Shown piece after piece: positions 9,401 to 63,850 of a stretch of 64,000 nt of DNA. Source of the stretch: Phoronis australis (Eukaryota; Animalia; Phoronida); NCBI GenBank assembly GCA_002633005.1, contig NMRA01000835.1, forward strand, positions 1 to 64,000. Reading direction: 5' to 3'. Within the stretch, counting starts at the first letter, position 1. Each line of letters opens with the position of its first letter. The position numbers and the translations under genes were made by a program. Below the pieces are notes generated by a model. It searched no databases and was not told where the DNA came from. It worked only from the letters and a program-made list of their open reading frames with translations.

Positions 9401-10631
9401 AGACGGTCTAATCGTGTAACTTAGTATAAGGAAAACCTACAATTACGGAAAAAATTATGGCAGCTATAAATCCGCGTGATTGAGACTTTTCAAATTGGCG
9501 CTCTCTAGAGCAATTAGAGCACGAAAGAGACCTCCGGTTGATCACGACTCAGATTCGGTGGACAGAATTTCAATTATGAATCGTGGTTCGTTAATTACAA
9601 AAAGCAGGGGAATAAAAGCCGGAGTCAGTCCCTCCCATCCTTTGATTACTTTAAGTTTCCTTTTTTTATACCGGCTTGAATCGAAACTCTGCCGTTTCAT
9701 AACCCGCAGCCACTGGCTTTGTCGCGGATTCTTTGTCGCATTGGCGGGGAATGTATTGAACATATGTCCTTGTTCATCTATTGATATTTCAAAAGATTTG
9801 CCTTTTTCGTAAGGCATTAGTACATCCCACCGCACAGCAATGGAACTTTACCGGCATCATAAAGCAGGAAAAGTATTCAATTTCTGGTTATACCAGTAGG
9901 TTGAAACCTCCCGTCAGCTATACATGGTATCTGTGGCGCTGAACGCCTGTCCACCAATTTGAAAGACTCGATTGCCGTCTGGCGGAATAGTGAATTTCAG
10001 TATGGCGTGACTATTTCGAAAGCCAGCTATTGCTCATAACCTGCATGTGGAGTGGTTTTTGGGGTGGGAAAAGTACAGGTTAATCTTGCTTGAAACCATG
10101 CTCGTCGTATGAAATGACGCGTTCTAACAAGCTAACTCACGGAGCTTGTTCTCAAGTAACATCAGACTGTCGATTCACTATAACCCTATATTTTTCATCT
10201 TACTTGACTAAGGAACAAGTTGAGACAAATTTCGTAGCGCAAAAGTAAGTTTTCGAGACGGAAAGCGAGTTTTTAAGGTGGGAGGCTTTGAATCTTTCGA
10301 TAATTTTTGTAAACATGATTAATCAAGGGCGAACAATACGCTTTTGCAGCGCACGATCTCGCACATAAAACCTATCTTCCACGCGGGTGAACAAAATATT
10401 TTTAGAAATCAGTTTATTTCAACACCTAGTCCCCCAACCCGTATTTTGCGAGTTTGTTTTTTTCCGGAAAATGCGCATAATTTGGAAACAACAAATTCCA
10501 CAATTTTTGATTCCGAAGAAAATCCGCAAAAAGACCCGCATGAACAGGCTTTTAGGCGCTTCAAGTCACCAAACAACAAGAGTGTGAGCAGCGTTACTTC
10601 CGGAAACGCTCAATTTGCGCAAGAGGAGCCT

Positions 10632-14553: not shown

Positions 14554-14876
14554 TCACACGGGAAAATGCCGTCCAAAAATCCCCATGTGTTCCCTAGCTT
14601 TCATCCTTAAGGAGGCGATAGAATTATTTCTTGGGTCACTTCCCTCAACATCCACGTTTTTCACTGATGCGTGCGGAAGGCTGCTCATTGCTGTTGCAAG
14701 TCCAGTAAACACATCGGCTGTGTTCGCCGCGTTAAAGTATGAGGACAAATTGACGTTAGCTCCCGGATGTGGAAAGTAACCCGGAAGACTGTGCAGGCTC
14801 GTGCTCACGCCCATGTGACCTGGGTTAGAGATGGGAGACGTCATCCAAGGGTCCAACGGAAGGGAAGTAGTGAGTC
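14554..14876 (-). CDS. Rx: Rx exon 4 (Rx motif + OAR domain, stop)
   Basis: Acceptor tttcag; [11 protein letters not shown]...[27 protein letters not shown]. Confidence 0.93.
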
Positions 14877-26800: not shown

Positions 26801-29800
26801 AATCACTTGCAGAGCGGGGATTTTTATTCTTTTTTAAAATAAAAAGCTGATATTAAAATATCAGTTACACACGTTATTTCGTTCGTTCATCGTCACTTCG
26901 TTGTTTAGTAGATTCAGTCGGCTATCGCGCTCACAAAAATGATAAACACGACGTTCACTTTGACGTGGCTAATATTGCGTGTGGCGATTGTGCAGTTTAA
27001 ATCAGTTATAGATCCTGTTATTGGCGTTAAATATCAGTTGTTAAAGACATCAAACTCGCTTGCAAAGTATTCTGTTGTTCTTAATGGTGTTTTCTTTTAC
27101 TAGGCTAATAAAAAATGAAGCGGCCATAAACACGCCATCCCCCCACAAAAGTACTTTTTTTGATTAAGCTCCGTTCGTGTCAAAATCCTCATGGGCTTTT
27201 AAATTTTTGAGAGTTTGTTGCCACCCGAGAACAAGCTCTACAAGATGGGTTGCTACGTCGCCCTATCAATTCATGCGTCGAGCATGGTCTCAGCGGTCAC
27301 CAATTGAATTTTTTCAAAGTCCAAACGCCACTCGTCACCTGAAATAGTTTTATGGTTGTAAGTTGTCTAAACTGAATGTAAGTTTCTTTGGTGAACAGTA
27401 AGAATGTAGCCGCTTTAAAATTGTATTTTCATTTGAAGAACTCAAAGAGCGTACTCGTATTACTGCATTTCTTTTCTTGACAAAACAAATATTTAGAACC
27501 CCCGCTTGGGGAAAATATATCTAACTAACGCATCAAGCCCGGAATTTAATGCATAATTATGGCGTACACGAGATAACCATTTTGTATTGTTTCTGTTTAG
27601 TTCGTTAATTCCTTTCAATAGAGTGCAGTTAAACGTTAATTTAACACTATCAAAAGCCAATCTGTGGGGAATTGTGGGGGAAACGCACGTCACTGAGCAT
27701 TTACGCTGATGGATGGTGCGCCTTTAAAACCGATGTCGTCACGAACGTGATACAAGGTTGGTTTTCCTTTCACTCGCGTGATGTGCTCGCGGGGCACCCT
27801 GTGGAGACTTACCTGGAAACCATTGTTTTACGTGCAGAATCGTAAAATAATGTGTTTATTGGATAACGATAAAGGAAATAATCTCCCAGATTGTTATCTG
27901 AAAATAAGTGCATTTTGCGGTGGTGTTGATCGCTTTTCGCGTTTACGGGCACAAGTTCACAGATAGTTAGTGAAAAACATAAACGATTTAATGAAAACAA
28001 AATTGAGCGATTTCTTGATGTGTTCTGGGAAATACGTGGAAATATTGCGCAGTAGTGGCTTTCCCCATTGTTGCCGGGCGTACATTAACGTAGGCATACA
28101 GGTGGTTAAATCAAAAACTTTCATCTGTTACGGGATGCATTCAGTTGCAACAGAGGTGAAATTTTCATTTTTTGCTACTGGATGTCTGAAAACGTTCTAA
28201 TAATGTAAAGCTTTTTCTTTTAAATAATCAAATTGCTAAGATCAAACACAGTGTACTGTGTCGAAGGAGTCCTCAATGTGGAAATATTGAAACATTTCAA
28301 TTATACAAGGACATCGATCTAGGAAAAGACGTCTTTTGCCATTGGGAAATTGTGCGTGAAATTCGGGGAACTATATGACTTGAATAACTTCAAAGCAGTT
28401 TTATGTTTCTGAATCTCTAACAAGTAGCTGAAGTGTTTTAAACTTTATCCTGTACTACACAACAGATTCACAGAGGTGGAGCCCTCTTCTCACCAAGTGA
28501 ATACAAGTAATTTTCTCACAATACCTTCTTGACAAGTCCATTACCATCTCTCTTGAGTGGTTTATAGGAACTGCACAAGTGTTAAAGAGCTTAACAGTAA
28601 CTGTACATATGTTGTGTTCATTAAAACTTGCTTCAACTTGTGATAAATGTACAAGTAACAAGTATCACTCAGACGCACATTATGTTATCTACAGCAGAGG
28701 ATTATTGTGAATGTGTTTGATGGACGTCATTAATTGACGTGTTGTTACCAGAACAGGTATCGTTAAAAGGCTGTGTATCTTATGCCGCTTTAATTGTATG
28801 CATATTAATCATGAAACAAATTAACTGTTTTCAAAATTGAAGTAGTGGTAACTAAACTGAGAAGTCGTATACCGACGACAGACAGTGGAGTAAATGACGG
28901 AAATGTGCAATAATCAACGTACCATGTATATCAGTTTACTAAATGTCGATGAGGTTGTTTCACATTTTAGTCATTCCCCCCACCCCTGCCTGGTTTTAAA
29001 TAGACCGTTCATGCTAGTCTTTTTGAGCATTTTTGTAAACTCTTGCAAATTAGTTATAGCATGAAAGCAAAAAACTGCGTAATTCTTTGCCGTGTTCACA
29101 CACTAGAGGAACAATTTTGCGGGAAACAAACAATATACTTGCATGAACGGAGTTAATGTAATCCGTGTTCCACCTTATCAACAGATATTGACCACGAACA
29201 AATCACATTAAAGTGTTTAAACAAAGTTACTCTCAAAAGTTCAGCAAAACTACTAGTAAAGACTTGTAAAGTGGTTATCTTGTGTAATTGACTCTTCGGG
29301 AGGGTTAGTCGTCGGCTCTGCACCTTCAACCGAGGCAACCACTTTTGAGGCAGAGTGAAAAAGTCTTTTAGTTGAATAAAGAGTTAATCACTTATTGGAG
29401 GCACCAATTGTGTAGAAACAACAGATCTAGCCATTTTGAGGAAATCACTAAACAGTGGCGGATTTAGAGGGGGGCCAAGGGGGCCATGCAACTCTTAAAA
29501 TTATCCCAGATTACATTTGGCAGTTCCAAGGTGCGAATGTCTGATGGCCAAAATCCTGACTAATACTCTTCCCTGCCCCCCCCCCCNNNNNNNNNNNNNN
29601 NNNNNNNNNNNNNNNNNNNNNNNNNNNNNNNNNNNNNNNNNNNNNNNNNNNNNNNNNCCGTTCATGCTAGTCTTTTTGAGCATTTTTGTAAACTCTTGCA
29701 AATTAGTTATAGCATGAAAGCAAAAAACTGCGTAATTCTTTGCTGTGTTCACACACTAGAGGAACAATTTTGCGGGAAACAAACAATATACTTGCATGAA

Positions 29801-32589
29801 CGGAGTTAACGTAATCCGTGTTCCACCTTATCAACAGATATTGACCACGAACAAATCACATTAAAATGTTTAAACAAAGTTACTCTCAAAAGTTCAGCAA
29901 AACTACTAGTAAAGACTTGTAAAGTGGTTATCTTGTGTAATTGACTCTTTGGGCGGGTTAGTCGTCGGCTCTGCACCTTCAACCGAGAAAAAGTCTTTTA
30001 GTTGAATAAAGAGTTAATCACTTATTGGAGGCACCAATTGTGTAGAAACAACAGATCTAGCCATTTTGAGGAAATCACTAAACAGTGGCGGATTTAGAGG
30101 GGGGCCAAGGGGGCCATGCAACCCTTAAAATTATCCCAGATTACATTTGGCAGTTCCAAGGTGCGAATGTCTGATGGCCAAAATCCTGACTAATACTCTT
30201 CCCTGCCCCCCCAACTGAAAATCCTGGATCCGCCTCTGCCAAAGCACGCTTTATTATTATTAAAATGACATTGTGTGCGAAAGAAATTGAAACCACGACT
30301 TCAGAGGTCGCTTTCAAACGTTCTGCTGGCTCGATAAATGGTATTTTATGCGCATTTCCCTTGTAAAGTCGCAGGTCTTGATTTAATAAAAGCACAAAGA
30401 CACAACGGATGTTGTTTTAAGCCCCTGGTCAAAGCTGATAACTTAAACATATTTATGCCATCCAAAATATTACAAAAATGCATTTTCAACCGTAAGATCG
30501 ATTATGTCCCTTTAACCAGGGGTCCGGCAACATGTATTTTATGAAAAGTGGCTTAAGACCTTAGTGAGATGTTTGGCGTTGGGAACATTGACGTGTCCCG
30601 CGCTACATCGGTTGAAAGCGCCATCTGTTCCCTGCATGAACTATAGGTGAAGTTCGACGAATACTAACACACTTATACAGTGACTTGAAGCTAACTGTCG
30701 TATCTACATTTTTGTAAACATCGATAAAAACACGGACAAAATACCGTTACACTGAGAAAATGTCAACCGTATCGATAACTCTTATTGGGTGTGCAACCTA
30801 AGCCTGTGTACCATTTTGTTCACCTTCATATATAACTAACAAATGGAGATGTGTGTAGCCAGCAGTTTGAGAACAGGTGTCGATAAATCTCATCATCAAA
30901 CCCAAGGCAACGGGGAACTGCACTGAATAAAGCCTATCGTATAATTTACCATAATGTTAGGAAATAAACACTCATCACCAGGCAAACATTGGCAATGAAA
31001 GTACAATTTTACATTGATCAAAAACGAAAATTGTGCAGCAATACCAGTCCTTAGCCAACGATGGAACAGATGTATTATGCCTCATAATTGAATGGCGGAC
31101 GATAAGTTCCGATTTTTGATTTTTTTGATTTCCTCTAGATGGCAGTGCACGTCTTTTCCTTCGCTGTGCACTGAGGCCAGATGTAAGCCAACCTGGTAAT
31201 GACATTTCTGTCGGTTTTCACAAAGGTACAAGTTGTGAATGGCATGAGAGCGTATAGGTCGATATGCGTGTACTATTTATTACAGAGGATATATACGTTA
31301 ATGGTTTGAAATTACTAATAACGAGGATTTTTCATTAAAGGCACGCTAGTTATTTTAACTTACAAAAGACAAGTCCGTTGTACCGTTAATAACAATCCCT
31401 GAAGTAGAGGGGGTAATCATTTTAAGAGCAAAAATCAAGCGAACCAACTTATATGTACAAGAACTACGCCTACGACTGTCTTCCGTAGTTCGAAGACACT
31501 CGCGAAAACACATGCTTACGTGTTCCAGTTGCAAGGCATGGCGAAAGCTCGCTAAGAAATGTGGGATCTCGCTTTTCTTGCAAGAAACTTGGTCTACACC
31601 CGGGGCGAAGTCGTGTACATTGGTGTTGATTGCTGTGTCGGGAATTGATAACTATCAAAGTTCCAGTAAAATCCTTAGCACAAGATGTGCTGGTATGTGC
31701 TCTCTGGGCGTTGCTAGATTCAAAACCAAAGCCACTGGCAGTCAATGCGATGCCTACTTGTAGCCAATGACGGCCATAGGTAAAACTAGTATTTTCATTA
31801 AGCGAGGAATGGAAATAACCTCATTTCCTGCCATCACAGTTTTGAATCACTAATCACCTGGTCGTCAAGGAAAAAGATTTATCTGATGCTTTTCTTCAAA
31901 ACTCCAGTGACAAGTCAGTCTTCCCCTGGTACAGTACACAATAACGCGAATGGACGATCATACGCGCATGTCAAACATCTTTCATTATTGTTTATACAGT
32001 GAGATCAGCACTGGGGATTTATAAAACCCCGGGGTGTAGTTGTTGATTGTTTATTGCGAGCTACAAGGCCACATTATACCTTTCTGCCGGATGTCATAGA
32101 TCCTTGACAGATATTCGATGACATTCTGAGTATGACGTAACAACTAATGTTATCCGCAAACAAAACAGAAGATCGTTGGGCTTCGCGGGTGTAGTGACCT
32201 CGCGTGGCAAGACTTTAAACTACGTCAAACGCTAGACACACCGCACTGCGTGAAGCACGCGCCAACTGCTTGCATTTTGAGATGGTTCAATAGTTCAGAT
32301 GTCCGTCATGTACCAGGATCGAGTCTCAGCTCCCGGGATCATCGTGTCCCATGACTGTAGTCGATCCGCCCCAACATGAACTATCAAGTTATTAAGATGA
32401 ACGCAAAATCATCGACCACCTACCGTAATTCACAAGGTCTTCCAAACTTTCATCTTTCTCTTCTGCATCGTCCGCTCGGGATTCGCTGCAGTGTCTAATA
32501 CCTAGTATAGCGTCAATAGTGTGGCGAGGGGTCGCCACCGTAGGTCCACTCTGCGCACCTAAGCCCCCTGTTTTTTCCTCGTGGTGCAT
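14554..32589 (-). CDS. Rx: Retinal homeobox protein Rx/Rax (paired-like Q50 homeodomain), 4 coding exons, 281 aa
   Basis: Exons 32589-32424, 25367-25126, 16308-16194, 14876-14554 join in frame with GT-AG sites (846 nt). Octapeptide HTIDAILG, homeodomain [49 protein letters not shown]|[15 protein letters not shown], Rx motif LPLDPW, OAR motif [15 protein letters not shown]. Confidence 0.97.
15194..15333. mobile_element. Small inverted-repeat element (MITE-like) in Rx intron 3
   Basis: GTTCAGTAACGCTAGGACCT at left vs AGGTCCTAGCGTCTACTGAAC at right (near reverse complements). Confidence 0.55.
15711..15880. mobile_element. Short GGCGGATC/T-type MITE
   Basis: GGCGGATCCAGGATTTTGAGTTAGGGGG ... CCCTTAAATTCGCTTCTG; the left end matches the reverse complement of 9343-9376 and resembles 30083-30238. 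Confidence 0.6.
16194..16308 (-). CDS. Rx: Rx exon 3 (homeodomain helix 3)
   Basis: tttcag|[38 protein letters not shown]|gtaagc; intron at the conserved paired-class position between homeodomain codons 46 and 47. Confidence 0.96.
16658..16945. repeat. (TAA/TGA)n trinucleotide microsatellite, probably an expanded retroposon tail
   Basis: About 290 bp of TAA/TGA/CAA repeats, preceded on the - strand by an AT-rich segment with a GAGGAT...ATCCTC stem. Confidence 0.85.
17380..17615 (-). repeat. Dispersed repeat with tRNA-like A/B boxes; second copy at 39133-39360 (+)
   Basis: On - strand TGTGGCCTAGTGGGATAA ... GGGTTCTAGCTCCTCAGCTCGG; the same blocks, including ACGTGGGACCTTAT, recur at 39133-39360. 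Confidence 0.65.
18031..19026. mobile_element. ~1-kb MITE, copy 2 (Rx intron 2; contains N gap)
   Basis: Same TIRs and body as 2338-3334; 5-bp TSD TCATC at 18026-18030 and 19027-19031. Confidence 0.88.
25126..25367 (-). CDS. Rx: Rx exon 2 (homeodomain helices 1-2)
   Basis: ttctag|ESQHSPVST...[49 protein letters not shown]|gtaaat. Confidence 0.96.
29005..30212. repeat. ~580-bp direct duplication across an N gap (probable assembly/allelic overlap)
   Basis: 29005-29586 is repeated at 29658-30212 with a few substitutions and one short indel. Confidence 0.85.
30083..30238. mobile_element. 156-bp MITE with CAGTGGCGGAT...ATCCGCCTCTG termini
   Basis: Imperfect TIRs; flanks CTAAA / CCAAA (5 bp, 1 mismatch). 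Confidence 0.7.
32424..32589 (-). CDS. Rx: Rx exon 1 (start codon, octapeptide)
   Basis: aaaATG start; MHHEEK...RHTIDAILG...LVNY|gtaggt; phase 1 matches exon 2. Confidence 0.9.
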
Positions 32590-39360: not shown

Positions 39361-39713
39361 TTTTTTATTATCTGCAAGTCTGTATATATTGTTCTTTTTC
39401 TGAGGGAAATTTGAAATCGTAGTTTTCGGCATTCATTTCTCTTCAAGGCAACTGGTGCAAGAGTTCATTGACTGCCGAGAGAGAGACTAGCAATTATGGA
39501 AAATGTAACGTCGTGTTTAACATTTTTGGAAGTGGAAAACAAGACTACATCTGTACAGCATGCTTTAATTTGAACTGAAAAGAAGGACTTCTTACAAGCC
39601 TCTTTTCTTCTCGTTTCGACGTTGTACGATTGCAAAACACTTAAACTTGATCATTTCCGGTTAAACACGCCACTAAATGCAACCGAATAATTTAATTGAA
39701 ATGTTCAACACTA

Positions 39714-40363
39714 AAACCGAGACCTTCACATTTTTTAAAATGGATATTCATTCTTATAATCAGTTGTTGACGTAAGCTCGTTAGATAACGACTCTCGTTT
39801 TGGATGCCTGTGGGTTGAACCATGCAGGCTCCTAGCAGTAAGAATAAGCGTCAGAAACGAAACTGTTGTCCCCTTTGGACGACTGTTCTTATTGAGCTTT
39901 CAGCATTCTACAAGCACAAACCGGAGGTCCCGCGTAACAGATGGATATCCAGCATCGAGGTGTCAATAATCAGTCCACATCATTGTCCGGCAAACAATAT
40001 CAAGCAAAATTTTCATACCTTTGCCAGGTACACTCCTNAAACCGAGACCTTCACATTTTTTAAAATGGTTATTCATTCTTATAATCAGTTGTTGGCGTAA
40101 GCTCCATTAGATAACGACTCTCGTTTTGGATGCCTGTGGGTTGAACCATGCAGGCTCCTAGCAGTAAGAATAAGCGTCAGAAACGAAACTGTTGTCCCCT
40201 TTGGACGACTGTTCTTATTGAGCTTTCAGCATTCTACAAGCACAAACCGGAGGTCCCGCGTAACAGATGGATATCCAGCATCGAGGTGTCAATAATCAGT
40301 CCACATCATTGTCCGGCAAACAATATCAAGCAAAATTTTCATACCTTTGCCAGGTACACTCCT
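39714..40363. repeat. ~325-bp tandem duplication around a single N (probable assembly overlap)
   Basis: 39714-40037 is repeated at 40039-40363 with about 4 differences, all near the 5' end. Confidence 0.85.
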
Positions 40364-42838: not shown

Positions 42839-43225
42839 CATCATCTAACTTGTAAACTCGTGGTTGGTGCAGTTCAGGACTAATAAGGGTTTCCCAAAAA
42901 CCAGTTTGAGAGGGTTGTATATTACTTAGAATACAGTAATTATACAGGTAGCACATAAATTGGACTGGGGATCGCCAGGTGTGTAGAGTAGTTACAAATG
43001 AAATACTGGCAAATACTTTAAAGAGTTCCCACCATGCATTTTCTTAGTTTTTGAGGTTTCAGTTACCTAATATGAAATGAATATCATAAAATTTAACTAA
43101 ATAAGCATTTTTTATGCCAAATAGTCGCATTTTTTTTGATTTTGAAGAAAAAATAGTTACTCTCAACTTTCCCGCCAAATGACGCTATGGGTGGAAGACG
43201 TTTGGCCACTTGATAATCAATTGCA

Positions 43226-44948
43226 ATGGCGGAGTACAGCAGATCAGAAAACGACGACGATTTTGAACGAGAACTAGACAGCTATTATGCAGACAGAGAG
43301 GCGATTGGATACGGGGATCACTCTCAAGTGCTAGAAGAATCCGACAATGAGTTTGATTTCCCACTTGGGGAACTTTCGTCAGCTTTGAGACCGTATGAAC
43401 TCGACCCACCTGCACGAGAACTGCCGCAGCCACGTCGAGCGGAATCCCCCCCTTCTGGAGACTTCAGGGCAGACATTTCTGAATGGTAGGTACCCTTCTT
43501 CATTTATGCTTCTGTGTTCATATTTGCATTAATTTGAAAAACACGTACTCCTCACTTGGTATTACCTTGTCCTCGGCTGTGTCTGGGCCGAGTTCCGAGT
43601 AGCCGCCATATTGTTTATTATGGAGTTCGCAGTCAGAAGGCCTACCGGCTGTCGTACGACAGCGGTTAGCTGCACGACTAATTGCCATGCTCGTATTTAT
43701 TGCTGATTGGAGCTCTGATTGATTGTATTTTATTACTTTCAAAAAGCATGCAATCGTTACACCTTTAGCTCAATTTAGCACACTCAACTGCCAACACTTT
43801 CCACGGACGGTAATCGGCGGTCAGTGTGTCTTCGCCTGAGAAGGCTGTCCAGATGGCTGATTTTGATATCGTCTTGCACAGGGCAACATTATCACTTGAG
43901 ACAGAATAGATAGATAGCAATTTGGCACTAGTTGGATATAATGCACCCTGATTTAGAGATTAGATTGGATATGGGAGGATTTTAGAAGGCTCGCACCCCC
44001 TCTTTTTGGGGCCTACAAAAAATGTTGCCATTGCCCCACCCCCTGGGAAATCCTAGACCTCACAGTGATATAGAAGGCAGAGTAAGTGAATGGAGTTTTT
44101 GCCATATGTAACCCTCAAATTTTATTCGTAGGGGTAAACCTCAAAGACTTGATAATTTTGAAATTTAGAGGAACTTGCAGTATAAAATTATGGTTCCTCG
44201 GTCAGCGGAATATACACTCCAACACAGTTGCCACAGTTTCCTTGATCACCCCCCTGCCAAAATGACGTTACAGTTACTGCTCGTCGTATCACCTTGCCCC
44301 ACAACCATTGAGACTGCTTTTTATGAGGCCCTAATGTATACAATGCATATTGTGGCACTGGATGAAAGGAACTGTTGTGGTTCCATCACTGAACTGTTGC
44401 ACACTTCCACGGCATTACTTTACAGCTGAATTTATTGGATCATTCCACAAAAAAAATCCGAGATGATTAATTTTGATTCTTGCTTCTATGGTTTCACACC
44501 GAAGTCGTTTTATATTGTCATATTCACATATTTCAGGTGCACATGTGGAAACTGTCAACTGACACCGGTGCCAACGGAAAGAGTGTGTTGCCAAGAGATA
44601 AAGCAAGTGAAACAGAAGCTGCAAAAAGAACTAGATCGAGGAGGCCTTAGCAAACCCAGGCAGTGTATAACATATCACAGGGGATTTGACAACGTTTGTT
44701 TGGACCCTGATGTGCTAGAGATCAGTTGGGGGCAGTATAAATTCCATTACCCCGATGGTTATGAAGGACCATACGATCGCAAAATGAGACATACTGCCTA
44801 CCGACAATTCCAACGTTGGATCCATGGGTTCTTGGGGCGACGTGTGAGAGTGGTTATACCTGCCTGTGCTGTAGCTAAAATACGTGCTAACTTCCCGCCT
44901 CCAGGAAATGAAGAGGACTATACATTTACTGGATTTTCTTTTGATTGA
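43226..44948 (+). CDS. KolX accessory protein (P2X7 cytoplasmic ballast/Nanor-like Cys-rich domain), 2 exons, 223 aa
   Basis: Exons 43226-43485 and 44537-44948 join as SEW|CTCGNC; motifs PYELDP, WCTCGNC, ERVCCQE, CITYH.GF..VCL, RHTAYRQF..W..G.LG...R.VIPACAV..IR..FP; AATAAA at 44983. Confidence 0.88.
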
Positions 44949-46238
44949 TGTACATAGCTCATTAGAATCACTTAGTATTTTTAATAAAACTGTATATTAC
45001 GAACTTCAGTAGTCACATTAATGTAAATAATTGCTTTCCCACATGTCCTTGGCATTACTCAACAATATAGACTGTGGTGTAATACTACAATCTACTATTA
45101 TGAGACCAAACGTTCAATTACATTAGCGTGATACAAGTGGTTCAATTACATTAGCGTGATACAAGTCCCAGATTGGCTGTGACTTCCTTTATGCAAAGTA
45201 AGCCATGCTTTCTTTTTTGACATTGGTTAGACATGTCGATGTATTGGATTACTAGGAGAATCGACATGGAATCTAGAGTCCAAGGACTTCTTTATGAGTA
45301 GTACCTTTGCTCTTTCCAGAAGAATTTCGACATAATGCTGTTATATTCTTTGAACCTTAACTGGATGAAAAACTGGTAACAGGCATTGACACTTGGAATT
45401 ATTTTACACGACAAACCATTGAGGCTAACAATCCTACAAAGCCACTGCTTTCACAGGTTTGAAATTCCTTAGAACTCTTGATATTTCTCTTACAACACTA
45501 GGAATTGCATTTTTGATAAATCTGACAATATTATGCAGTACAGTTGTCCCAGTTTTTGCACTGGGCCCATTACACAAGTTTCTCTTTGAATGGCTCTGAC
45601 TATACACACAAGGACTTATGGGTGATTTACTTTATGCACTTTCAAGGCTAAATAAGTTCTCCTGAGGTAGCTATTGCAAAATCCCGAAAGTAAGGCCAAG
45701 GCCTTGTTGCTCAAATGATGCATTTTCAGGGAACAGTTAAATAATGGCCCATCAGTTCTCAAGCTTGGAGATAATTTCTAACCTGGGTAAGGAACACAAT
45801 GAGGCCTACTGCATCAGTAGCGATGTTGGTTTTTGACGGGAGCGAATTTATTGGCCCTTAAAATGTTAAACCATGTCCTTACATGTGGACCAAAAAGGAA
45901 TTCATTTCCTCCAAAATTACGATCCTATCTATGAGCAATGTTAAAATGTTCATATTATTTATCAATCATCAATCTTTCCGAAAACAGTTTTAAGTAATAC
46001 AATTACAGCAGTATAAATAACAATCAACATGCAATCGGGGCCCAATCGTAACACCTGGAACAAAACTGGTAATTATATGACACTTCTGTCTCAGTATTCA
46101 ATCGCTAGGTAATATTTCACTCAACATTATTCTGCTTATTGACACAAACCGAAGGTTGAGGTTGATACGCGGAATAATGTCTCGTGGGATATTACTTTAT
46201 GTACGCCACTCTCGGTGCGTTTTCTGTATGTATCCATC

Positions 46239-49200
46239 TCAGGGGTACACATGCGGGTATCTGCTTCTTAGGGCCTCAGCCACTTCATGAGTGTCAACTT
46301 CAGGATACTCCGTTGTTAAAGGCTGAGGAGCATTTGCCTCACGCAAGTCGCGCAGATGTGTTGCCAGCTGAGGATTCTTTACGAGGTACATCACTGTGTC
46401 CATTAACTTATCAACATACGCTGAAAGATACAAAGCATAAGTTGAGAGCATATAGTGAGAAGTTAGCAAAACTGTCCTTCCTTTTGTCACTCCCTTGGTC
46501 TATGCAGCTTAAAACCAATCATGTTCTCGCGTTAAACCCAATTTTCTGCTTGCTTATGGTTTTTTGAGACCAAATTAATGGTAACTCAAACTAGTCTGCA
46601 ATTGCAGGAAACTCGTTTTGTCAGGTAACAGACTGTACATCTTAATTACCATATGTAGCCTCTACTCTTGTAGCTCGTGCGACTGGTTCGCCTCCTCTCC
46701 CTCGTGGAAAGCTCCTCTTCCACTTCAGAGACATGTCAGCTTTCCGTGCCAATGCTCTACCCGCATTTTCATTGTAATGTAGAGCCGCCAAGGTGAGCCT
46801 GTGAAGAAAACAGAAAACAAAATCCAAAAAATTATAGTTATCAAATATTAGTGGTGTTCTAGAAAAAATCACACAAAGTTAACATCTAAAAGTTAAATTA
46901 AGACCTCTAACTATATGACACCTTCAACACTAGTGGGTGCAAAGATTTCATCCAAAAATGGGAACATGTCATTGTTTCCAAATTACCTGCTTTTCATTGT
47001 GTGATAGTGGAAGTGGCGCATCTTAGGAGCAAATTCATTTACCACAGCATGAAATGCCTCTAATGAAGCTGTCTGTCCAAACGGGGACAGTTTCTGTACA
47101 TCTTTTTCCATCTGCCGGCTTTCCAGCACTTTAACCAGCTCCTCATATTGTTGCGATCCTGTGACAAGGACAAAGCAGACACTTTCAGGTTATTAACCTG
47201 AAAACAGGGTCTAAGTCATCAAATCAATGGCTGGATCACTTAGTTTCAAAATCAGTCATTTTCTATTTTATGGTATCCACTGTTATACAACAAGGAAATT
47301 TTAACCCAATTTTAACATGGTTGATGTTGCTATGAACCTGTGTGCTGCCAATATTATTGGGACCACAGAAATTGTCTCTTGCTCACAGCAGAACTGACAG
47401 TAAATTATTGCTCAAGACCATTCTAAGTTCATAAAATGACACTCTGGACCAAGCAAAGTTAATGAATCTGACCTCCAGCAACAACAGAGCTCAGAAATCA
47501 CTTCCAATATGACCAAGAACCTATCAAAACCAATTTTACAACTAAGATGAAATTACTTTTTTGCAGAGGACAGATTATCCGGACAACTGAACTTGCAATT
47601 TTCACGAATATTATGTTTTGTAGGTAAGCAGTCAGGAAATGCTCCGGCAGCAATAAACATACTTTACTTGTATTCTGCAAAGATTTTGTGATGTACTGAG
47701 ACATCCACAGAAGTCAAACAGTTGAAAGCTTTGTTGTCGCCTAATGGTTCAACCAATTAAGTGACTCAGTGGTAAAAATAAGTAAGTCAAATCAAAAAGT
47801 ATACCTGGCTGTAACCACTGCCTGGGTGAAAGTGCATCATGAGCACATCTTGGAAACAGGGGATGCTTGTGTACATGGATATCTGCAATATGATTGGAGA
47901 GGCTCCTCCACTTGGCCAATGCCAGCTCTCCATTCCCATCACTTGAGGTTGCGCACCAATACAAGTGATTGGTGATCGCTGGTTTCCACTTTCCCACCTC
48001 AGGGTACTTTTTTACGATGACTAATAATTTTTTATTCAGGCCTAAAACAAAGTGATATAATATTACTTTGCAATACATGTATAAAGTAGCAGCACATTGA
48101 TCAAATCAGAGTTTGTCTCAATGCTTTCCTTAACAACGCGTGACTTGTCACTCGTCAGTCTGCAATGACAATGACACGATCTGTTATTTTCTGTTGAGGA
48201 TACATGTAGTTTATCTGTTGGAATTTCCGAGAAAATAAGACACAGAAATAATCAGTCTATTACCTTTTGAAACATGCCAAATGTCAAAGAAGTGTTCATC
48301 TGGCCTCCAGTGGTCTCGAATCCATGCTGTTATCTGCGGGTGCCGGTCTGTAACTACTGTAATTTTGGTAGGCGAAGCAGTAGCCAAAAGCTTAACCTTG
48401 CATCTCTTCAAGCCTTCAAGCTCCATGTGGTAAGAGCTACCAACTTCATTTTTCTGCAACATATTTAGCTCATTAAAAATCAAAACCAATAATAGAGCCA
48501 ACAACATAAACTGTATATTATTCACATATCAGACTTACTTGAACTAATTGAATCCTTTTCATATCTCTTTTAACCTGAAAGAAAACCATTTGTGTACTTG
48601 AAACAGAAATATTACCTGGACAATTTCCATGGCTATGACCTTGTTTCCATGAAGGTCCATCAAAGAGTATGACCCGTACTTAGCAGAGTGGCCAGGGCTA
48701 CAATTTAAAGAGGAGAGATCGCAATTTTCTATGTGAACAACAATTCTAAGAAACACCATCCTGAAAATATAATTTCCGTTACTAATAATAACTTCAATTC
48801 CAGCATAGAACGTGTGTGCCTAATTATTTTAGGTAATACCTGCAATGACTCTCATGTGTGCCTAATTATTTCAAGTAATACCTGCAATGACTCTCATTGA
48901 TCGTTGTATTGTTGATATGAAAAGGAAATTATCATAACAGCACTTATTTATAAACAAAGACAAAAATTTACCTATCACATCTTGCATCACCACCAAGCAG
49001 AACCTCAGGAGCCAAATTAAGGAGGAGTTCCTCCTGCTGGTCACAATAGACTTTGTCTATAGCATCATGAAGAAATAGCCGTTGATGGCGAAAGAATGTG
49101 TTTGTATGATATGATTGAACACCAATGAACTGCAGCAAATTTTGTACTTTTGAAATTGAGCTGCCACTAAACAAGGTGGCAGCTGACAACAAGAGATTTC

Positions 49201-52200
49201 CTTCCGGGTAATCCCCAACAAATGGCTGGGAGTGCCAGGTGTAGCCAGGACACTTTAACGTATCGCAGTTCTGCTGCACAACAACCATCGTGCCCATCAT
49301 CTTCATGATCTGAGGGGAAGCCTTTTTCCTACAGAGGTGGCAGACATCAAATAACTTCAACAGTGAAGCCTCATACACGATGTACTTCCTGTTGGCATCA
49401 GGTTCGATGAAGTCAGGTGTTGACAATTTCCTAAAACGGTATTACAAATTACACGTTAGATTTATGTGCAATAATAGCTTACCTATCAATAGGCAAACAC
49501 AAAGGTAACTATGACTTCATTTATTATGGCGTTTTCCCGTTCTTCAAACTTGTTCAATTTTAAAACCCAACAGCAAGTTGGGAAGATGACCTGAGATTTT
49601 TTGCGAAATGTCAAATGTGAACAAAAGTTCAGTTAATATTGGTCAATATATTTCCCTAATTCTATAAGACCAAGTCATCAATTTTGATAAAAGCTTACTT
49701 GGGGCGCTTTTCTGGGCTAGATTCCTCTTCAGAAGAAGGACTGTACGAGGAATCTGAATCTTCAACAGGCGAGTCCAACTGAGGCTCCAGAGGTAGAAGG
49801 GGAGGTGAAGAGTCTGTGGTGGATGGCAATGTGGTATGAGTCTCCAGCTGAATCTCAACGTGCAGGGGAGAGGACGCAACAAGTGGGGTTTCTGCAGATG
49901 CAGCACACACTGTAGATGACGACATGGTAGGACCTGACTCGACACTCATCTCACCTTTCTTAAACCATCCTTCAAGATCACTGCCTGCAGGAAATAAATT
50001 GACAGCACTTTAGAAACAGACACTTGGCAAAACAGCGTTTCCGAAGAAACCAAATGTCATCTCAACAAGGAACAAGATGAGACCATTGTTACAGCATTAT
50101 CTGGTCTAAGTCAATCCTTTGTTTTTAAAGTCAGCACAATTAGCAAAATATCTAGTGTAAGAATACTGCAATCTTATTAAAAATATAATTTTTCTGAAAG
50201 TACAAATCCTGTACAATTTGCAGCATTTTTGACTTTTTACTAATCTAATATAAGTGGGTCACGTGACCACGTATTAGTAAAATTCAGGAAAAAGGAAAAG
50301 GTACAATGATAGCAAAACAATGGTATCAATTACGGTAACCATAACATGCATGATCAAATTTCACTTGAGATAAATTTTCTAAATGAGATATCAAAAATGC
50401 TGTTATAGTTTTTCATCATTTTCAATTCATGAAAATTAAAAAGTTTTTACGCAAATCACAAAATTCCTATTTTGGGATAGACCTTCACACAAAAGTGGAT
50501 AATTATAAAAACAAACCCTAACAACCTTTTCTATACCAGTGGATAAAGCATAGTACCTGAAGTTTTCATACGAGGTGTGATGTTCCAACGTAAGCCATGT
50601 TCAATACATTATAACACGTTATCTCTTTTAAAGTAAAGCATCTCAAAGCAATATACATATACAAAACAAAACAAAACAAAACAAAGCACAGCAGCAGTGT
50701 ACTGATGAAGGTCGTCCCTGACAAGATAATGCTATTATGGAGAAATACAAAATGCGCCTTCCTTCTGTCCATAGGCAAACCACTTCAGCCCATAAATTAA
50801 GTATACTATCAACTCAACTCAATAACCAAGTATTCATGAAAGGCATTCCCATGATAATCCAAACAAATTACCAGTAATTTTCGTTTGTGTTTCAGCATCT
50901 TGTTTGATAGGCTTCACGATGAGTTCTGTGTCCCAGGAACACATAAGTTTAGGTGGTGAAGGCGATGGAGCACGAGACACAGTGTGAGGAGCTTTCGGGT
51001 TCTTGGTTTGATGCTGCTTGGCAAGCGAACGTACTTCTTCACGAATCTAGACAAGTGCAAATTGAGAATATTTACCAAACCTAGACGGTTTGAAAAAAGT
51101 ATAAAAATAGCACTTTGACAGAGCAATACGATGTCAAAACGGAATTAACTCGATATGAAATTCCACAAGGCAATCACAAATTTATAAAATTCATGGCAAT
51201 GAACTTACCCTTGCAGTCTGAAGCTTTTTTGTCACCACAGCCCGTTCAGCCTTGCGTTTCGTACTCACAGCCACTCGCTGAGACGGCAATGTGCTTACTT
51301 TACCAGATATAGGTAAAACTGATGGCACACTGCCTGGAAGTAAGCGAAGACGACTGCAAAACAAATCCGAAGAATTTAGTTACTCACGCTGCATCCAGTA
51401 CAACATGGTCAAGATTTTCTTCCAGTATAATTCATGTATAAGCCTATGCATTTGCTACAGTGTATGGACTTACAAGTTACATGTTTGAAGGACTCTGCAA
51501 TGACATTGTAAGAACCCCCATGGCACATGGACTGATCAAGTCGAACACATCCACACCCGTCACACAAGAAAAGGCATCCGAGAATTACTTAGATGCATGG
51601 TAAAGAAAATCTAAATTAGAATCCAGTGCATGCTGTGTTCACTTGGAAATCCTATTGGCACACATCAGTGCTAAATTAAGTTACAGGATTCTCCAGTCTA
51701 ATCTGTCCAACAATAAAACAGTACAAATGTCATGAAGAGACTCACTGCAAAAAAATTGCAGATTTGAATGCGGCTTTGACGAAGAAAACTATAAGTGGGT
51801 TGAATCATGAGACACAAAGAACAGTGCTTGCATGATTGACAGTGTATTCACGACCAACACCCTTGGTTAATGGAGAATTGTAATGGCCTTCCTTGTTACA
51901 TTGAATGTTTGAGTATCACAAGTACACAACCTGCAGAATGTAGGTGCCATCTTGTTTACTGAAGAAGACCAGCGTAAAATTTTGCCTTCAAAGAATTACA
52001 GGCATTTGATTTCCTCCTCTGAATACTGCAGTAATAATCCAGTGTTCATACAGAAAGGTACTGAGTCACAACCAACTCAACTGAACCAAGGGGTGGTCAA
52101 TTTTCACAAAACTGACACTTTATAATCGCTGACAAAGGACAAAGTAAGCCTGGGTCACTCCTATTCACTATTGTCATGATGGAATGAACGTGGTAGGCAA

Positions 52201-52591
52201 TGCTTACTCCGTAGTCCGTAATGGCATAAGCCTACGAGGCTACGTGTAGTAGCACTCGATCTGGGCCGGAGTCGAGGGCTACTCCTCAATCGCCCTAGAA
52301 TAGAAGCAGTGTGTTCGTTATTTATAAAATTTGAAAATACACTTACAAGGTGGCGAGTCCTTCATCGTATCGCCGCTTCTGTGTGGGGTCGAAACACGAC
52401 TCGCTAAAATGTGACGAGCAAATGGTGGCTCCCGACCGGATCGCATGTTCAACAGTAACATTCCATACCCGAGTACGGCGCACAAACCGGTGCCATTTCT
52501 GTGCAACTTTGACATCTTTCGGGAATTTGAATGCTGAGACGTTCTCAGTCAAATTGCTGTTGCTACAGCCGCCACAAACGCACCTTTTCAT
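46239..52591 (-). CDS. Kolobok transposase with N-terminal THAP domain, DDE core and H2CH zinc motif; 11 exons, 773 aa
   Basis: Exons 52591-52347, 51353-51209, 51046-50872, 49984-49699, 49430-48972, 48697-48616, 48453-48264, 48041-47805, 47158-46987, 46798-46650, 46420-46239; all GT-AG and phase-compatible (2322 nt, no internal stop found). THAP: CVCGGC..FP..W..CSSHF..GSVPS. Core: GDARCDSPGHSAKY, VTDRH, DIWH, HLYWC, HIADIH..CAH, QTASLEAFH..FAPK, LAALHYNEN. Confidence 0.9.
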
Positions 52592-53005
52592 GACTGAAAA
52601 AAGGCAGCTACCCACGAACTTTCCTCTCGACTCCTTAGTTCAACACTGCGTAAACAACAACAATGGCAGAGACGGCCTTCCACCCGTTACGTAGAACAGA
52701 AAATATATTTTTTTTAATTTTTGGCTTTTTCTAAGCAGTAGGTATACTAAAGACTATTAAATCTCTTAAGATATATTAATAAAATTCTTTTTTGGTATAC
52801 AATGTCATGGTGGGAACTCTTTAAATATACACGGGTAACTCCATTTGTGACGAACGTACAATCAGAGAACATTTTGATCAATTGTGAAAAATATGTTTAT
52901 CCTAGGAAAACAATTAATACATCAATTGATAGGTCTCACTGATACCTTTCAAAGCGTGTATCAACTTTTAAACAGTCTTTTAATCTGAGAGAAAATTGCC
53001 TTTAA

Positions 53006-53676
53006 AGGGATGTGACGGACGAATTTAAAAAAAATAAACAGCTTATTATTTAAAATGACTTATTCTTATTAAAATGACATAGGCACAAAATTGAATTTCG
53101 GACCTCAAAAGCCTCCCACCTATATTAATATAGGAGCCCCGCTCTGCGGCCTCCTTTCGGCGGGACCCTCCTATATTAATATAGGTGGCCTCGCTTTTGA
53201 GGTCCGAAATTCAATTTTTTGCCTATGTCATTTTAATAATAAGTCATTTTAAATAATAAGCTGTTAATAACGTTAATTTTCTGTGAGTTGCATTAAGCTA
53301 CAATTTTTTGTTTTATATGATGATTTTGTGGAATGTTTACAAAGCACAACACACTATTTTGATGATATCTTCTAAGAATTTTTTGTGAGACAGCTCGATA
53401 TCAGTTGAGTTAGTGTGACGTGACGGGTGTACGCTCTGAATTTATAGTATTAAATTGTTTGTTGTGACTAAGATATCAATTCAGAATGATTCAAACTTTT
53501 GCAGTATATATTGGTCTTTTCCTACTAATTCGATGTTTTTTAATTAAAATGTACCGATTGACCTTTTGCACGAAATCATCATAGATAGCCCTATGCTAGA
53601 AATATACTCTAGGATTTTAACTTTTCAATACATTTGATTAAAGATATAAAACAACCCCTAAATTGTTCACTTCCCT
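53006..53676. mobile_element. 671-bp non-autonomous TTAA-flanked (Kolobok-like) element with internal hairpin
   Basis: TTAA|AGGGATGTGA ... TCACTTCCCT|TTAA (10-bp TIR, 1 mismatch). Confidence 0.6.
53037..53265. repeat. Long inverted repeat (~100-bp arms, ~31-nt GC-rich loop)
   Basis: AACAGCTTATTATTTAAAATGAC...CCTATATTAATATAGGAG mirrored by CTCCTATATTAATATAGG...GTCATTTTAAATAATAAGCTGTT. Confidence 0.93.
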
Positions 53677-55459
53677 TTAAAGATTGTAAGCAGTATAGAT
53701 AGGAATGAGAGTGATAATTATTTTGTATCTGACAGCTGTAAGTTATCAGGAAAACTTGTTTTATGCGTTAAATAGAATACTAATTCAAAACTAATAAGTA
53801 AATGTGACTGTCAAAATATAAATGTGAAATAAAGTTTGTAAAAAACATTACTAATTACTGTCATAAAAACGCATTTTAATTAATTTTTTTAAATTAGAAT
53901 TCGCCCTAAGTTTGTACAAAATTATTCTCTGGGACACACCGTTGATGGTTTTGATGTATGCCCATGTAAGTAATAATAATGATGTTTTAAAAGTTATTAG
54001 TAACAGGGCTTCAGTATCTTCTTAAAACAAAGTGTGAAGCATGGTTTAGTAAGCAGCATCAACTTTTGGCATTTTTTAATTAATTGTATTTAGGATTATC
54101 CTTTAGGAATATATAGAACTAACTTAATAGATGTTGGTTTCTATTTAGTGATTAGCATGACTAGGTTTTCAACCACCTCTAGTCTTTAACTCATGCCTTC
54201 TTTTCATATTTAAAGAGAGGCTGATTTAAATAATGTCACATCACAGTACGCGCAAGTACAATGAATTTCTTGATCCACGATAGCATTTTTTTCCAGTTTA
54301 GGAAAATATTCCGGCAGATATCTATTTTTCTCCCAGTTGCATCTGTTCTTCCTGTGGTCTCTAACAATTTCCTCTATTATTTCTAAACGCCGATTTAATC
54401 TTTTCAGAGCTCAGCAGAAAAAAATAGTCGAATTCTTAAAAAGAAACTTTAGGTCTCTTGTTATTTATACTCTAAAGCACCTTAGGAATTCTTTTGTATG
54501 AATATTTTTGCATCGTGAATTTCCCAAAACCTAAGCATTTCTCTATACACACGGGGTACCAACAGAAAAACAATAAGTTCAATAAATTAACATTTTGTTT
54601 TATTTACATTTTTAATGGTCCAAGTGTCTGATTTTAATATGTTGAATTCTATTAAGAATAACTAGATGACATTGTGAAGTATAACTTTTCTGCAAATACT
54701 TTTGAAACTGAAAAAGGCCAATGCATTTAGTTTAAGTCTATAGCAACTTCTTCACTTAATTTTTAAGCTACATTTGTAATATCTTATCCTAGTGTTCTTA
54801 GGTTTGAGATACATTTTATCTTTTGCAAGTTTGGAAACTAAAAATATGGCCTAAGGTTATTTTTATTGGCTGAAAAATTGTATTTTCATGGGTGTGACGG
54901 ACGTACGTGACGAACATACAAATTTGCTGTACGTCTGTCACGCAATTTCTGACTTAACGAATAATCCCTTGAATCTAAAATTTTGGTCAGTAGTATTAAG
55001 TAACAAGTTAAAAGAGAATCTGAAATTATTTGGATTTTTATTGAAAACTTTTAACGTGACTAAACTTTTTAACAGTTTTTAAGACGGACGTACGGCGCCA
55101 TGATATTCAAAAGTTGACCTTTCAACCCAAGAGGTCGATGACGTGAGAAAGTTGAACTGTCAGTTTCTTATAAAGTGTGGAGATCATGTGATTGTACAAA
55201 TTTGGTAGTAAAGTGAAATACCCATAATTAGCTTTTTATGACAATACTTAGCAACACACATGAAAATCGAGCTAACTTTTTAGGGTCAAGAGACCCCCAA
55301 AATGCGTTCATTTAGGCAAAAAATGAAAGTTATTAGACAGTCAAATATGGGTCCTGAAACCAGAGAGCGTGGGCTTTTAGGTGAGACTAGAAATGTTAGT
55401 GTAGCCAGGATTTTAATTTTTTGTCTCGAGGTTGACTTTTTCACGGAATTGCCAACATA

Positions 55460-61264: not shown

Positions 61265-63414
61265 ATTGAGAGAACAAGAATCAGTTGTTGGCATGGAATA
61301 ACTTGAGTAAAACATTTGCATGTTCGTGGGCTATTAAAATATGAGTAGAGGAGACTTAGCGAAGTCTTTTGGTGAAAAAATCTTAACATGTGAGTTTACA
61401 AAAAATAAATATAATAACAAAATAGAACTGGACATTCCCGAAAATTGATACGAATGATCGATAAAATGGCAGGAAACGGAGTCCTGGCGTGACGCAAAAG
61501 TTCATGTCTCCAGCTCAGTCACTGCACTGCAATGCAACATTGTTACAGGTATTTGTTCCGCCGATGCTGCACTCTAAGGCATCCTTGGTGATCCTCATGG
61601 CTAACTTGTCAACCATTAGCTATCGCCAGAAGTAGTGACACCTGTTGAGAAAAAATAGATGCTTCCTTATTTGAAGTACTTTAATCCTTTATTAATGCAA
61701 TTCAGTTAAATTCAATCATAATACCAGAGCAATTTACTCAGCCACATGGTAAATATTGTCCTTGACAGACATGTTTTTACAGCCAATGTTACAATTTTTG
61801 TGATCAGGTAACCTGGGAGATAATTGCAGTTTTGGCAGTGCATTTCAATTGCTCACATATAACTGTTTCCGTAAATATTGTTTAGTTTACTTTATTTTAT
61901 CAATAAGATCCATGACAGGGCGATGATGCCTACGACATCCACATGTGATACATCGCCTACAATAATACAAAATCGGTCTCACGCTCCCACGCCACAGTTA
62001 CAGTAAAGGTTATGCTGCATAATTATTAGCGCGTCACAGCCTAGAAATAATTTTAAAATTTATCTCAGTAACTAGAAGTTATTGGTGTATTCCCAGATAC
62101 TTTGCACATGTACTTTTTCTAAGGTGAGTTTCAATTATTTTTCAGAAATAGTTATGCCGAGCCTAAGATCAAACATTTGACTTCAGATTTAAATCACCTT
62201 TCATGAAACAGACACCCGGACTCACTTGAAGGTCAATCGGAATATATTTGAGCGGCATTCTAGGTATTCCGACAGCATTGGAAATGCATATGATCCATTT
62301 TAAAATCTAAGTAGATTCCATCAGCAATCAGAATACATTCGATGCGTATTCCTGTTCATTCGAGGTAGATTGGGGACATTGTGGCCGGATAGGGAGTGAC
62401 TTGTCGACTCCTTTTCCCTTGAACGCCACCAAAATGTCTTTTTTCCTGTTATAATGCAGTTAGAATGTTAAAAAATGCAGTCATAATAAGGCACGCATGT
62501 TTTCAACATGAAAATAATTCATGACGGCCACAAGGATGGAACCGACTGTACGTAGAATGCGGAGAAAGTCTTAAAACAGACTTCAGATATCCCGGAGTAT
62601 GCGAAGAATTCTGATTCCGACGGCATTCCGGCTGACTGTAACTCTTCTGTGAATAAGGTTCAGAATAAGTAACCTGCTTGCGTTTAAAAACTCGCCCTTA
62701 TTGTTTGGGTTTCAAAACTCAACCATATCGTTTTCGTACGAACGAGCTCAAGCACAACTCTGAAGTAGCGTCACTTACTGCTTTTCCCGCGAAAGTTCAA
62801 CGAGCCCTTGTAGGCCTACATTGCAATGTGAAGCCACTGTGAGCCCACCTTCCGTTAAGGAAGTGCGTAACATTACTCACTGCAGCTATAAAACAGTTTC
62901 AACTTGTTCCTTACCTTGACAGGCTTGCAAAAAACTGACACCTTGATTATTCCTTGAGATCATGCTGGCCACATAAAATGACACGCCGTGACAAGCCAAC
63001 TTGTAACGCCTGTGGTCTCGAGCAATAAGGACTGCCAATGCTTTGGAAGTCTGAAAACATATCTTATTTGTCTACAATGTGAGATCAATTTCTTAATGGC
63101 AAAGGGGTCTAAATCAAAAGTAGTCTAGGTTTTGGCAGTGGCAGAAAGGGCATATATAAATATAAAACGTTCTTCTCTGCGTACACGGTATGAGTATGAC
63201 AGCAAGCTAAAATCCTAGAAAATTCTGTAATTTCGTAGAAAGTCCTCCATCGTAAACTCAAAGTTAGCGTTTTAAAATACTCGGAAAGAAGACAGCTTTG
63301 AAAAATATTCAGAACTGCCTTAGATGGACACATAAAATCGGTCAAAATATTATTTAAAAGCGTTTCGAAATTCGCGCCAGTTTCAGTTATAGAAAAAAAA
63401 TTTTCATGAGGCTG

Positions 63415-63850
63415 CATAGGCGGATTTATGGGGGGCAGGGGGCCCGCCCCCCTTGGATGCCGCAAAAAAATAAAACAGCAAGAGCGTAAGGAAATGTTGA
63501 GTTTATTAATTAACCCCGGTAATTAAAAACATACGGCTGAAACAAGATTTAAATGTGTGCAGTTTTAATGTGGGGGGGGGGGAGGCTCAGATCCAATTTC
63601 AAGTGTCAAATTCGGAACACGACGCAATCGTAACGGAACTATGGCTAAGTATGGGCTCTCTCCCGCGATATCTCAGGCGACAGGCTTTGGAGCTAGGCAC
63701 TGCGACTCCGTTTCCGTCGTCTGCTCCACTGTGCAATGAAGAAAATTATAAATTCATTTTGAAACTGGAATCTGAGTGATGGTGAAAAAACAGAAGCTGC
63801 TGGTAAGATGTCAATTTTAATATAAGCTTTAGTGAATCACTCAGAAACTC
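63415..63850. mobile_element. ~1-kb MITE family, copy 3 (left part only)
   Basis: Starts CATAGGCGGATTTA and follows 2338-2775 until GTGAATCACTCAGAAACTC, then diverges. Confidence 0.82.

Follow-up and report, generated by a model that had tools for sequence, protein, structure and literature searches.

The window analysed here is a stretch of 64,000 nucleotides from the phoronid Phoronis australis (GCA_002633005.1, contig NMRA01000835.1, positions 1 to 64,000), of which positions 43022-52820, 9.8 kb in all, had been put forward in a preliminary description as an intact two-gene Kolobok transposon. The question that this locus raises is whether the segment is a complete Kolobok with expressed genes and, if so, whether this copy still moves. 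We conclude with good confidence that the segment is a Kolobok of the Kol0 lineage, complete in structure and both transcribed and spliced, and likely the autonomous low-copy member of a family with many non-coding derivatives.

Ends, target site and coding capacity

The element is bounded by two 15-bp terminal inverted repeats (TIRs), one at 43022-43036 on the plus strand, starting with AG, and one at 52806-52820 on the minus strand, where the element terminates in CT. The repeats are complementary at 15 of 15 positions and each is flanked by a TTAA target-site copy, at 43018-43021 on the left, where contig ends with unlike flanks also mark the boundary, and at 52821-52824 on the right. Exactly two matches to the 19-mer composed of TTAA and TIR occur in the window, even when up to three mismatches are allowed, compared with a mean of 0.03 in shuffled sequence, in which two matches were reached in 0 of 100 shuffles. 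The perfect TIRs and TTAA duplication of the preliminary description are thus borne out. Neither long direct repeats at the element ends nor a second copy of the transposase or KolX gene elsewhere in the window was found.

Inside the element, a minus-strand transposase gene (11 exons, 773 aa) converges with a plus-strand KolX gene (2 exons, 223 aa). With splice sites picked from the sequence, the transposase exons join at GT-AG sites in agreeing phases; the 13 exons contain no frameshift and the sole stop of each gene is the terminal one, which upholds the two convergent genes as first described. Between them an AATAAA on the plus strand overlaps an ATTAAA on the minus strand (44980-44988), likely a polyadenylation signal common to both genes, and in the bin below 44972 minus-strand RNA has dropped to a depth of 0. 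The transposase 3' UTR delimited by RNA depth is ~1.25 kb long (44972-46238, minus strand) and contains a high-copy repeat at ~46030-46230, visible from DNA depth and loose contig ends.

The first transposase exon (52347-52591; all exons of this gene are on the minus strand) encodes a THAP domain (Pfam PF05485, E 7.7e-11, 43.1 bits against a cut-off of 23.9), while the ten others are supported by both the gene model and RNA. Exon 2 (51209-51353) supplies the end of the THAP domain, with SVPSVL at the position of the AVPTIF box, and is followed by exon 3 (50872-51046) and by a linker rich in serine, proline and acidic residues in exon 4 (49699-49984). Exon 5 (48972-49430) carries a cysteine cluster (C314/C317/C339) and the catalytic D432; exon 6 (48616-48697) leads to exon 7 (48264-48453), with the catalytic D500 and the DxxH signature D521-H524; exon 8 (47805-48041) holds the H2CH finger (H578/H583/C593/H595) and exon 9 (46987-47158) the catalytic E640. 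After exon 10 (46650-46798), exon 11 (46239-46420) contributes residues 714-773 and the stop, with a conserved RSR(F/Y) end. Over 470 aa, the spliced protein shares 41% identity with a THAP-bearing fish protein. In a shallow alignment of 57 rows, mainly fragments, D432 is kept in 9 of 9 relatives, and D500, E640, D521/H524 and the H2CH residues in all 8 relatives whose sequence reaches them, save that E640 is an aspartate in one. Intron 3 contains a repeat of ~180 bp with 12-bp inverted ends (50221-50402) and raised DNA depth, 77% alike to positions 17785-17885; it is likely a MITE-like secondary insertion.

The element had also been placed 10 kb upstream of Rx. A minus-strand homeobox gene does start at about 32589, which puts 10.4 kb between it and the left TIR, so the distance stands. 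Its product has an OAR motif and an octapeptide-like motif besides the homeodomain, a combination for which we provisionally use the name Rx. The single Rfam match, to mir-975, lies outside the element in a hairpin within a repeat and was rejected at 31 bits against a cut-off of 90.

Expression of the two genes and the nature of KolX

RNA data over 42860-53400 came from three stranded raw runs of 2026 (X6, X7 and X8), about 18-19% of each of which was read, and from a 2015 contig set (X5) presumed to be RNA; the raw runs carry the same species label. With 3 reads from 2 starts required for a junction to be listed, the transposase gene shows introns 2-10 at exactly the predicted positions, that is, 9 of its 10 introns and 9 of the 11 in the element. 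Junction reads in X6, X7 and X8, in that order, numbered 1/12/0 for intron 2, 12/12/0 for intron 3, 23/7/2 for intron 4, 18/5/3 for intron 5, 10/1/1 for intron 6, 3/7/0 for intron 7, 11/7/3 for intron 8, 10/3/0 for intron 9 and 8/3/0 for intron 10, and all derive from one strand; introns 3, 4, 5, 6, 9 and 10 are also spliced in X5 contigs. The transposase gene is therefore transcribed and spliced. The confirmation of the proposed junctions stops short of two, since neither intron 1, which separates the THAP exon from the catalytic core, nor the KolX intron is among the junctions listed for X5-X8. Sense reads occur within intron 1, at a depth of 3-8 in X6 and X7 that is about exon level, and within intron 3. 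Intron 1 nevertheless has canonical GT-AG ends, and joining it brings back the C-terminal box of the THAP domain in frame, whereas its retention would end translation after 82 aa. For KolX, depth over exon 2 is 0-0.85 in X6-X8, three of the four RNA sets, and X5 has an RNA-type contig at 44545-44969 that covers this exon.

KolX exon 1 (43226-43485, plus strand) is a model exon that encodes an acidic N-terminal part, with 24 Asp or Glu residues in the first 86; exon 2 (44537-44948, plus strand) encodes a zinc domain like the P2X7 ballast (Pfam PF20478, E 3.8e-13) and the stop codon. The junction between them is supported by a homolog from Owenia fusiformis (P0033) that aligns across it with 57% identity over 175 aa and is, among the 120 relatives listed, the closest, at 65% over exon 2. 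A sequence search of the PDB matched exon 2 to P2X7 residues 477-585, and all 14 top fold matches of its predicted model (pLDDT 83.7) are P2X7; the fold is the same as that of the P2X7 ballast (also ZCD or nanor; PF20478; PDB 6u9v; Foldseek E 7.7e-5, TM ~0.6), although KolX lacks the channel domain and has the acidic N-terminal extension. All seven zinc cysteines of the ballast are kept, in a P2X7 numbering taken in part from the PDB alignment. Three of the five GDP contacts, as defined by Rump et al. 2020 (PMC7016195), have equivalents in KolX (R546, H547 and R578; R546 and R578 correspond to KolX R171 and R203), while R574 and K583 are replaced by valine and proline. Of the 120 homologs listed, from 376 found, 115 retain R546, 116 R578 and 54 H547; one match (P0116) carries the UniRef name 'Kolobok-2 xt'. 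The link between KolX and the ballast fold, which the preliminary description leaves out, is already published (Kojima & Bao 2022, PMC9587614), and KolX has been proposed as the source of the P2X7 domain; GDP binding by ballast-type proteins is discussed as a possibility by Rump et al. (PMC7016195). We consider it likely that KolX binds guanine nucleotide, and likely that it is a non-catalytic helper or regulator, a putative role. When the KolX of a relative was modelled in complex with the transposase core of that same relative, the score was 0.00, which is evidence neither way.

Relatives at other loci place this layout in context. A KolX relative was found at 297 metagenome loci; of the best 80, many of them redundant, 46 have a transposase match, in all 46 cases downstream and on the opposite strand. 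Downstream sequence extends for 2 kb or more at 41 of these loci, 37 of which carry such a match, and at 9 of the 80 we found TTAA-flanked TIRs starting with AG. At least one of introns 6-10 lies at the identical codon and phase in 9 of the 12 spliced loci checked, the position of intron 5 is common to none of the 12, and some fetched relatives are intronless. Because relatives have the convergent arrangement and common intron positions, a two-gene, intron-rich layout is ordinary for Kol0. The left-end sequence had no match in the metagenome contigs, and in viral contigs no KolX relative was found in 19 pattern stretches and no transposase relative in 6.

Family copies and mobility

The DNA evidence consists of four contig sets (X1-X4) from one sample, covering 42860-55400, in which depth is not true copy number. 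In X1, 63 contigs with unlike flanks stop at the TTAA-TIR boundary, 38 at 43018 and 25 at 43017; X4 has 47 such contigs at these two positions, X2 at least 29 and X3 at least 28, the last two counted at 43018. Depth in X1 is 7076 in the left-end bin against 50-110 in core bins free of other repeats. An internal-deletion form that joins 43420 to 52076 is present in DNA and in RNA, and 14 contigs in X2 have a variant right end with the TIR unchanged. From these many differently flanked ends at TTAA, it follows that a non-autonomous family has spread at TTAA sites and was mobile; the numerous short non-coding elements with the same ends were likely mobilised by the element itself.

The core behaves differently from the ends. 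Its contigs differ from the window at only 8 of 20,342 letters, introns and UTR included (25 of 32 pieces shown), and the coding core has long unbroken contigs at about single-locus depth, a weak measure, which argues against a burst of full-length copies. Core depth is ~2 times that of one variant flank contig, which fits two copies per diploid genome, at one homozygous or two hemizygous loci. The 5' part (50.4-52 kb) is covered more deeply, with 43 differences in 2,988 letters (6 pieces), and in exon 2, 4 of the 5 differences shown alter an amino acid, a pattern suggestive of a truncated sister copy in decay. Samples from three studies all contain this gene with high identity, which would be compatible with a fixed locus too. 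The element had been called recent and potentially active, with near-identical copies and an empty site as the expected signs. The many TTAA-flanked family ends and the nearly invariant core agree with this, but other repeats lie within the element, in intron 3, in the 3' UTR and probably in the KolX intron, and these argue for some age; no near-identical full-length copies were seen, and the 15 rows listed, beyond which there are 148 more, include no empty-site joint. The single-locus core depth, the decaying sister copy, the internal repeats and the lack of an empty site among those rows leave present activity unproven.

That the copy is immobile and fixed, its genes kept by the host (domesticated or becoming so) while TIRs and TTAA have not yet decayed, seems to us unlikely. 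Such a history would account for the single-locus depth of the core, for the nearly identical spliced transcripts that samples from two other studies contain, and for the X5 contigs, which may however stem from different copies, with 10 differences in 794 letters of 3' UTR and no more than 4 in 1,235 of coding sequence (Fisher p 0.024); it would also have precedent in Xenopus, where Kolobok transposase domestication is common, some domesticated proteins retain the DDE residues and intact single-copy ones are included (Hikosaka & Konishi 2018, PMC6004289). It sits poorly with perfect TIRs and TTAA, with a core in which introns and UTR vary as little as stated above, and with the many family ends elsewhere and the sister copy. 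Selection on coding sequence arises in active transposon lineages too.

We consider it improbable that a recent insertion is already non-functional, its frames open but yielding no full-length mRNA that includes THAP, or no KolX. The unlisted intron 1 junction, the sense reads in introns 1 and 3, the stop after 82 aa on retention and the near lack of KolX reads in three of four RNA sets all point that way; against them stand the canonical ends of intron 1 and the in-frame THAP box that it restores, the thin coverage of 5' junctions (1, 12 and 0 reads for intron 2), a diverged sister copy from which intronic reads may stem, and the KolX exon 2 contig of X5. At the opposite extreme, the element might be a living, self-regulating Kolobok that drives the TTAA MITE family, with its output gated by intron-1 retention and with KolX as a zinc and GDP/GTP switch ancestral to the P2X7 ballast; the P element has a regulated intron, a model for gating of this kind, yet we hold this reading to be a long shot. 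We return to a structurally complete and likely autonomous Kolobok, of which this copy is possibly, though rather doubtfully, mobile at present; the probability that mobility and domestication leave over goes to a copy that is neither, intact but quiescent.

Place among known transposons

The assignment to Kolobok, and within it to Kol0, is supported by motif agreement, and the family named in the preliminary description holds on the ends, on Pfam and on published alignment motifs. Family ends adjoin the 4-bp TTAA duplication in dozens of contigs; the termini have the form 5'-RR ... YY-3' (AG...CT); the DDD/E triad (D432, D500, E640) has C/DxxH after its second member (D521-x-x-H524) and H2CH between this signature and the last glutamate (H578, H583, C593, H595). 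The N-terminal THAP domain is that of the XKol type, and KolX with the ballast fold and seven cysteines is that of Kol0 (Kolobok0). In a by-eye comparison, the transposase motifs agree with the published Kol0 rows Kolobok-1_XT and Kolobok-1_BF. The KolobokP/E/D/H lineages were rejected, as there are no long terminal direct repeats, the accessory gene is KolX instead of a nuclease or helicase and no CCHC lies between D432 and D500; piggyBac agrees in TTAA but its ends, which set it apart from Kolobok, are unlike RR..YY (Kojima & Bao 2022, PMC9587614).

It is scarcely credible that the element belongs to piggyBac, P or Mutator. TTAA is also the target of piggyBac, some members of which carry a partial KolX (PMC9587614). 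Among the fold matches of a Kol0 relative are ISCth4 and the P element, and the nearest Atlas clusters are named Mutator-like, with PF20700 in 39% and 83% of members. The P element also has a THAP domain, which is thus common to it and Kolobok. Matches of the Mutator and P type are expected, because these superfamilies have the C/DxxH fold in common (PMC9587614), and relatives score below the Pfam cut-offs for Mutator and MULE. Kolobok is favoured by the RR..YY ends, by an H2CH finger that follows the second catalytic residue and precedes the third, by the complete set of seven cysteines in KolX and by the motif-by-motif agreement with both Kol0 rows.

The fold comparison used an AlphaFold model (pLDDT 78) of the core of a natural intronless relative (L027), not of the Phoronis transposase itself. 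Its top match is ISCth4 (E 1.9e-6), followed by integrase, P-element and Hermes entries (E ~1e-3). ISCth4 (IS256/Mutator; PDB 6xgx), the P element (6p5a) and Hermes (2bw3) have the RNase H-like DDE core and helical insertion domain in common with the relative, at an identity of only 9-13% and a TM of up to 0.36, and, unlike the Phoronis element, are without KolX. Their target duplications are longer and less specific than the TTAA of Kolobok.

As a working mechanism, the THAP domain would bind sequence near the element ends, the catalytic DDE core, RNase H-like and with a DxxH insertion domain, would cut at the 15-bp TIRs and insertion would follow into TTAA with a 4-nt stagger, the same transposase moving short derivatives in trans; KolX would be a separately expressed zinc protein of ballast fold and a nucleotide-binding helper. 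A circular intermediate has been proposed for KolobokP. Since this route and a fold akin to IS256/Mutator and P make chemistry of a non-piggyBac kind likely, cleavage without the piggyBac-type hairpin is more likely, perhaps via a circular intermediate, and the suggestion of a piggyBac-like tool is true of the target only.

The element is also no special candidate for such a tool, given ten published full-length frog copies with single-ORF transposases (PMC6004289) and the intronless relatives among the fetched loci. Our literature search, with subscription journals mostly outside its reach, found no experimental demonstration of Kolobok transposition, and PMC12292965 does not mention Kolobok. 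Being intact and confirmed at most of its junctions, the element can serve the study of Kolobok transposition and KolX function, and a second TTAA-specific system with a fold different from piggyBac could be useful; were the self-regulating reading true, the pair of cDNAs with RNA support would give the first experimental reconstitution of a Kolobok and a role for the ballast fold.

Set beside its closest counterparts, the element adds no new architecture, and similar intact copies have been published for Xenopus. Kolobok-1_XT, the type, and Kolobok-1_BF have the same TTAA, RR..YY ends, DDE with DxxH and H2CH, and seven-cysteine KolX, and no difference of kind from them appears (PMC9587614); the Phoronis copy has 10 transposase introns, 9 of them RNA-supported, and the five positions of introns 6-10 are common to distant relatives. 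The XKol elements of Xenopus (Hikosaka & Konishi 2018, PMC6004289) are 7.8-12.2 kb at full length, with AG ends, TTAA, THAP, DDE and H2CH, and a transposase of similar length, and there too, among XKol and T2-MITEs, few autonomous copies stand beside abundant non-autonomous ones. In that account the frog transposases are taken as single long ORFs, whereas the Phoronis one is divided among 11 exons, and many frog Kolobok genes are domesticated and have lost the DDE residues, which the Phoronis transposase retains.

RNA across intron 1 and the 3' end of the transposase gene

In the RNA reads, sense RNA covers intron 1 of the 11-exon, minus-strand Kolobok transposase gene (51354-52346) at approximately the depth of the exons, and the junction of this intron is absent among the junctions listed from these reads. 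Judged from the sequence, retention of intron 1 would yield a THAP fragment of 82 aa. Alternatively, the RNA over the intron may derive from nascent transcripts or from the sister copy, the second, diverged and probably truncated copy of the 5' part of the element that is suggested by DNA contigs.

Between the transposase gene and the convergent KolX gene lies a 9-bp stretch (44980-44988) that reads AATAAA on the plus strand and ATTAAA on the minus strand, and it is near this stretch that the RNA read depth of the transposase stops. We also observed a very high-copy repeat (46030-46230) within the transposase 3' UTR, directly past the stop codon; a search for inverted ends in this repeat found none, and an Rfam search of it returned no match.

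Other genes and repeats in the window

A minus-strand, Paired-like homeobox gene, which we take to be Rx, occupies 14557-32589. Its homeodomain is in two parts, near 25260 and near 16310, and the gene also has an OAR motif and, at 32523, an octapeptide-like motif. An open frame of 420 aa on the same strand (10635-11894) has weak matches to F5/8 type C and Kringle domains, both under the Pfam cut-offs, and seems to encode a signal peptide along with a membrane segment.

One dispersed repeat is present in three copies that are approximately 87-90% alike (2323-3334, 18012-19026 and 63413-63850). Tandem, near-identical blocks meet at N runs at 29005-30212 (578 bp at 95%) and 39711-40363 (328 bp at 98%); these are possibly assembly overlaps of two haplotypes.

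Further TTAA-flanked elements

A second TTAA-flanked element, of approximately 670 bp (53002-53680), lies 180 bp to the right of Kolobok. Its ends are AG..CT, with nine of the first ten letters complementary; a perfect 28-bp inverted repeat lies inside it (53037-53265), and the element has a very high depth in the DNA contig sets. It is likely a non-autonomous, Kolobok-type MITE of a different family.

In L067, one of the 80 metagenome loci fetched for having a KolX relative, a TTAA-flanked element of 2.4 kb with perfect 25-bp TIRs (9506-11876 of that locus) contains KolX, while the transposase is present in pieces only. This element is an internal-deletion derivative in which KolX has been retained.
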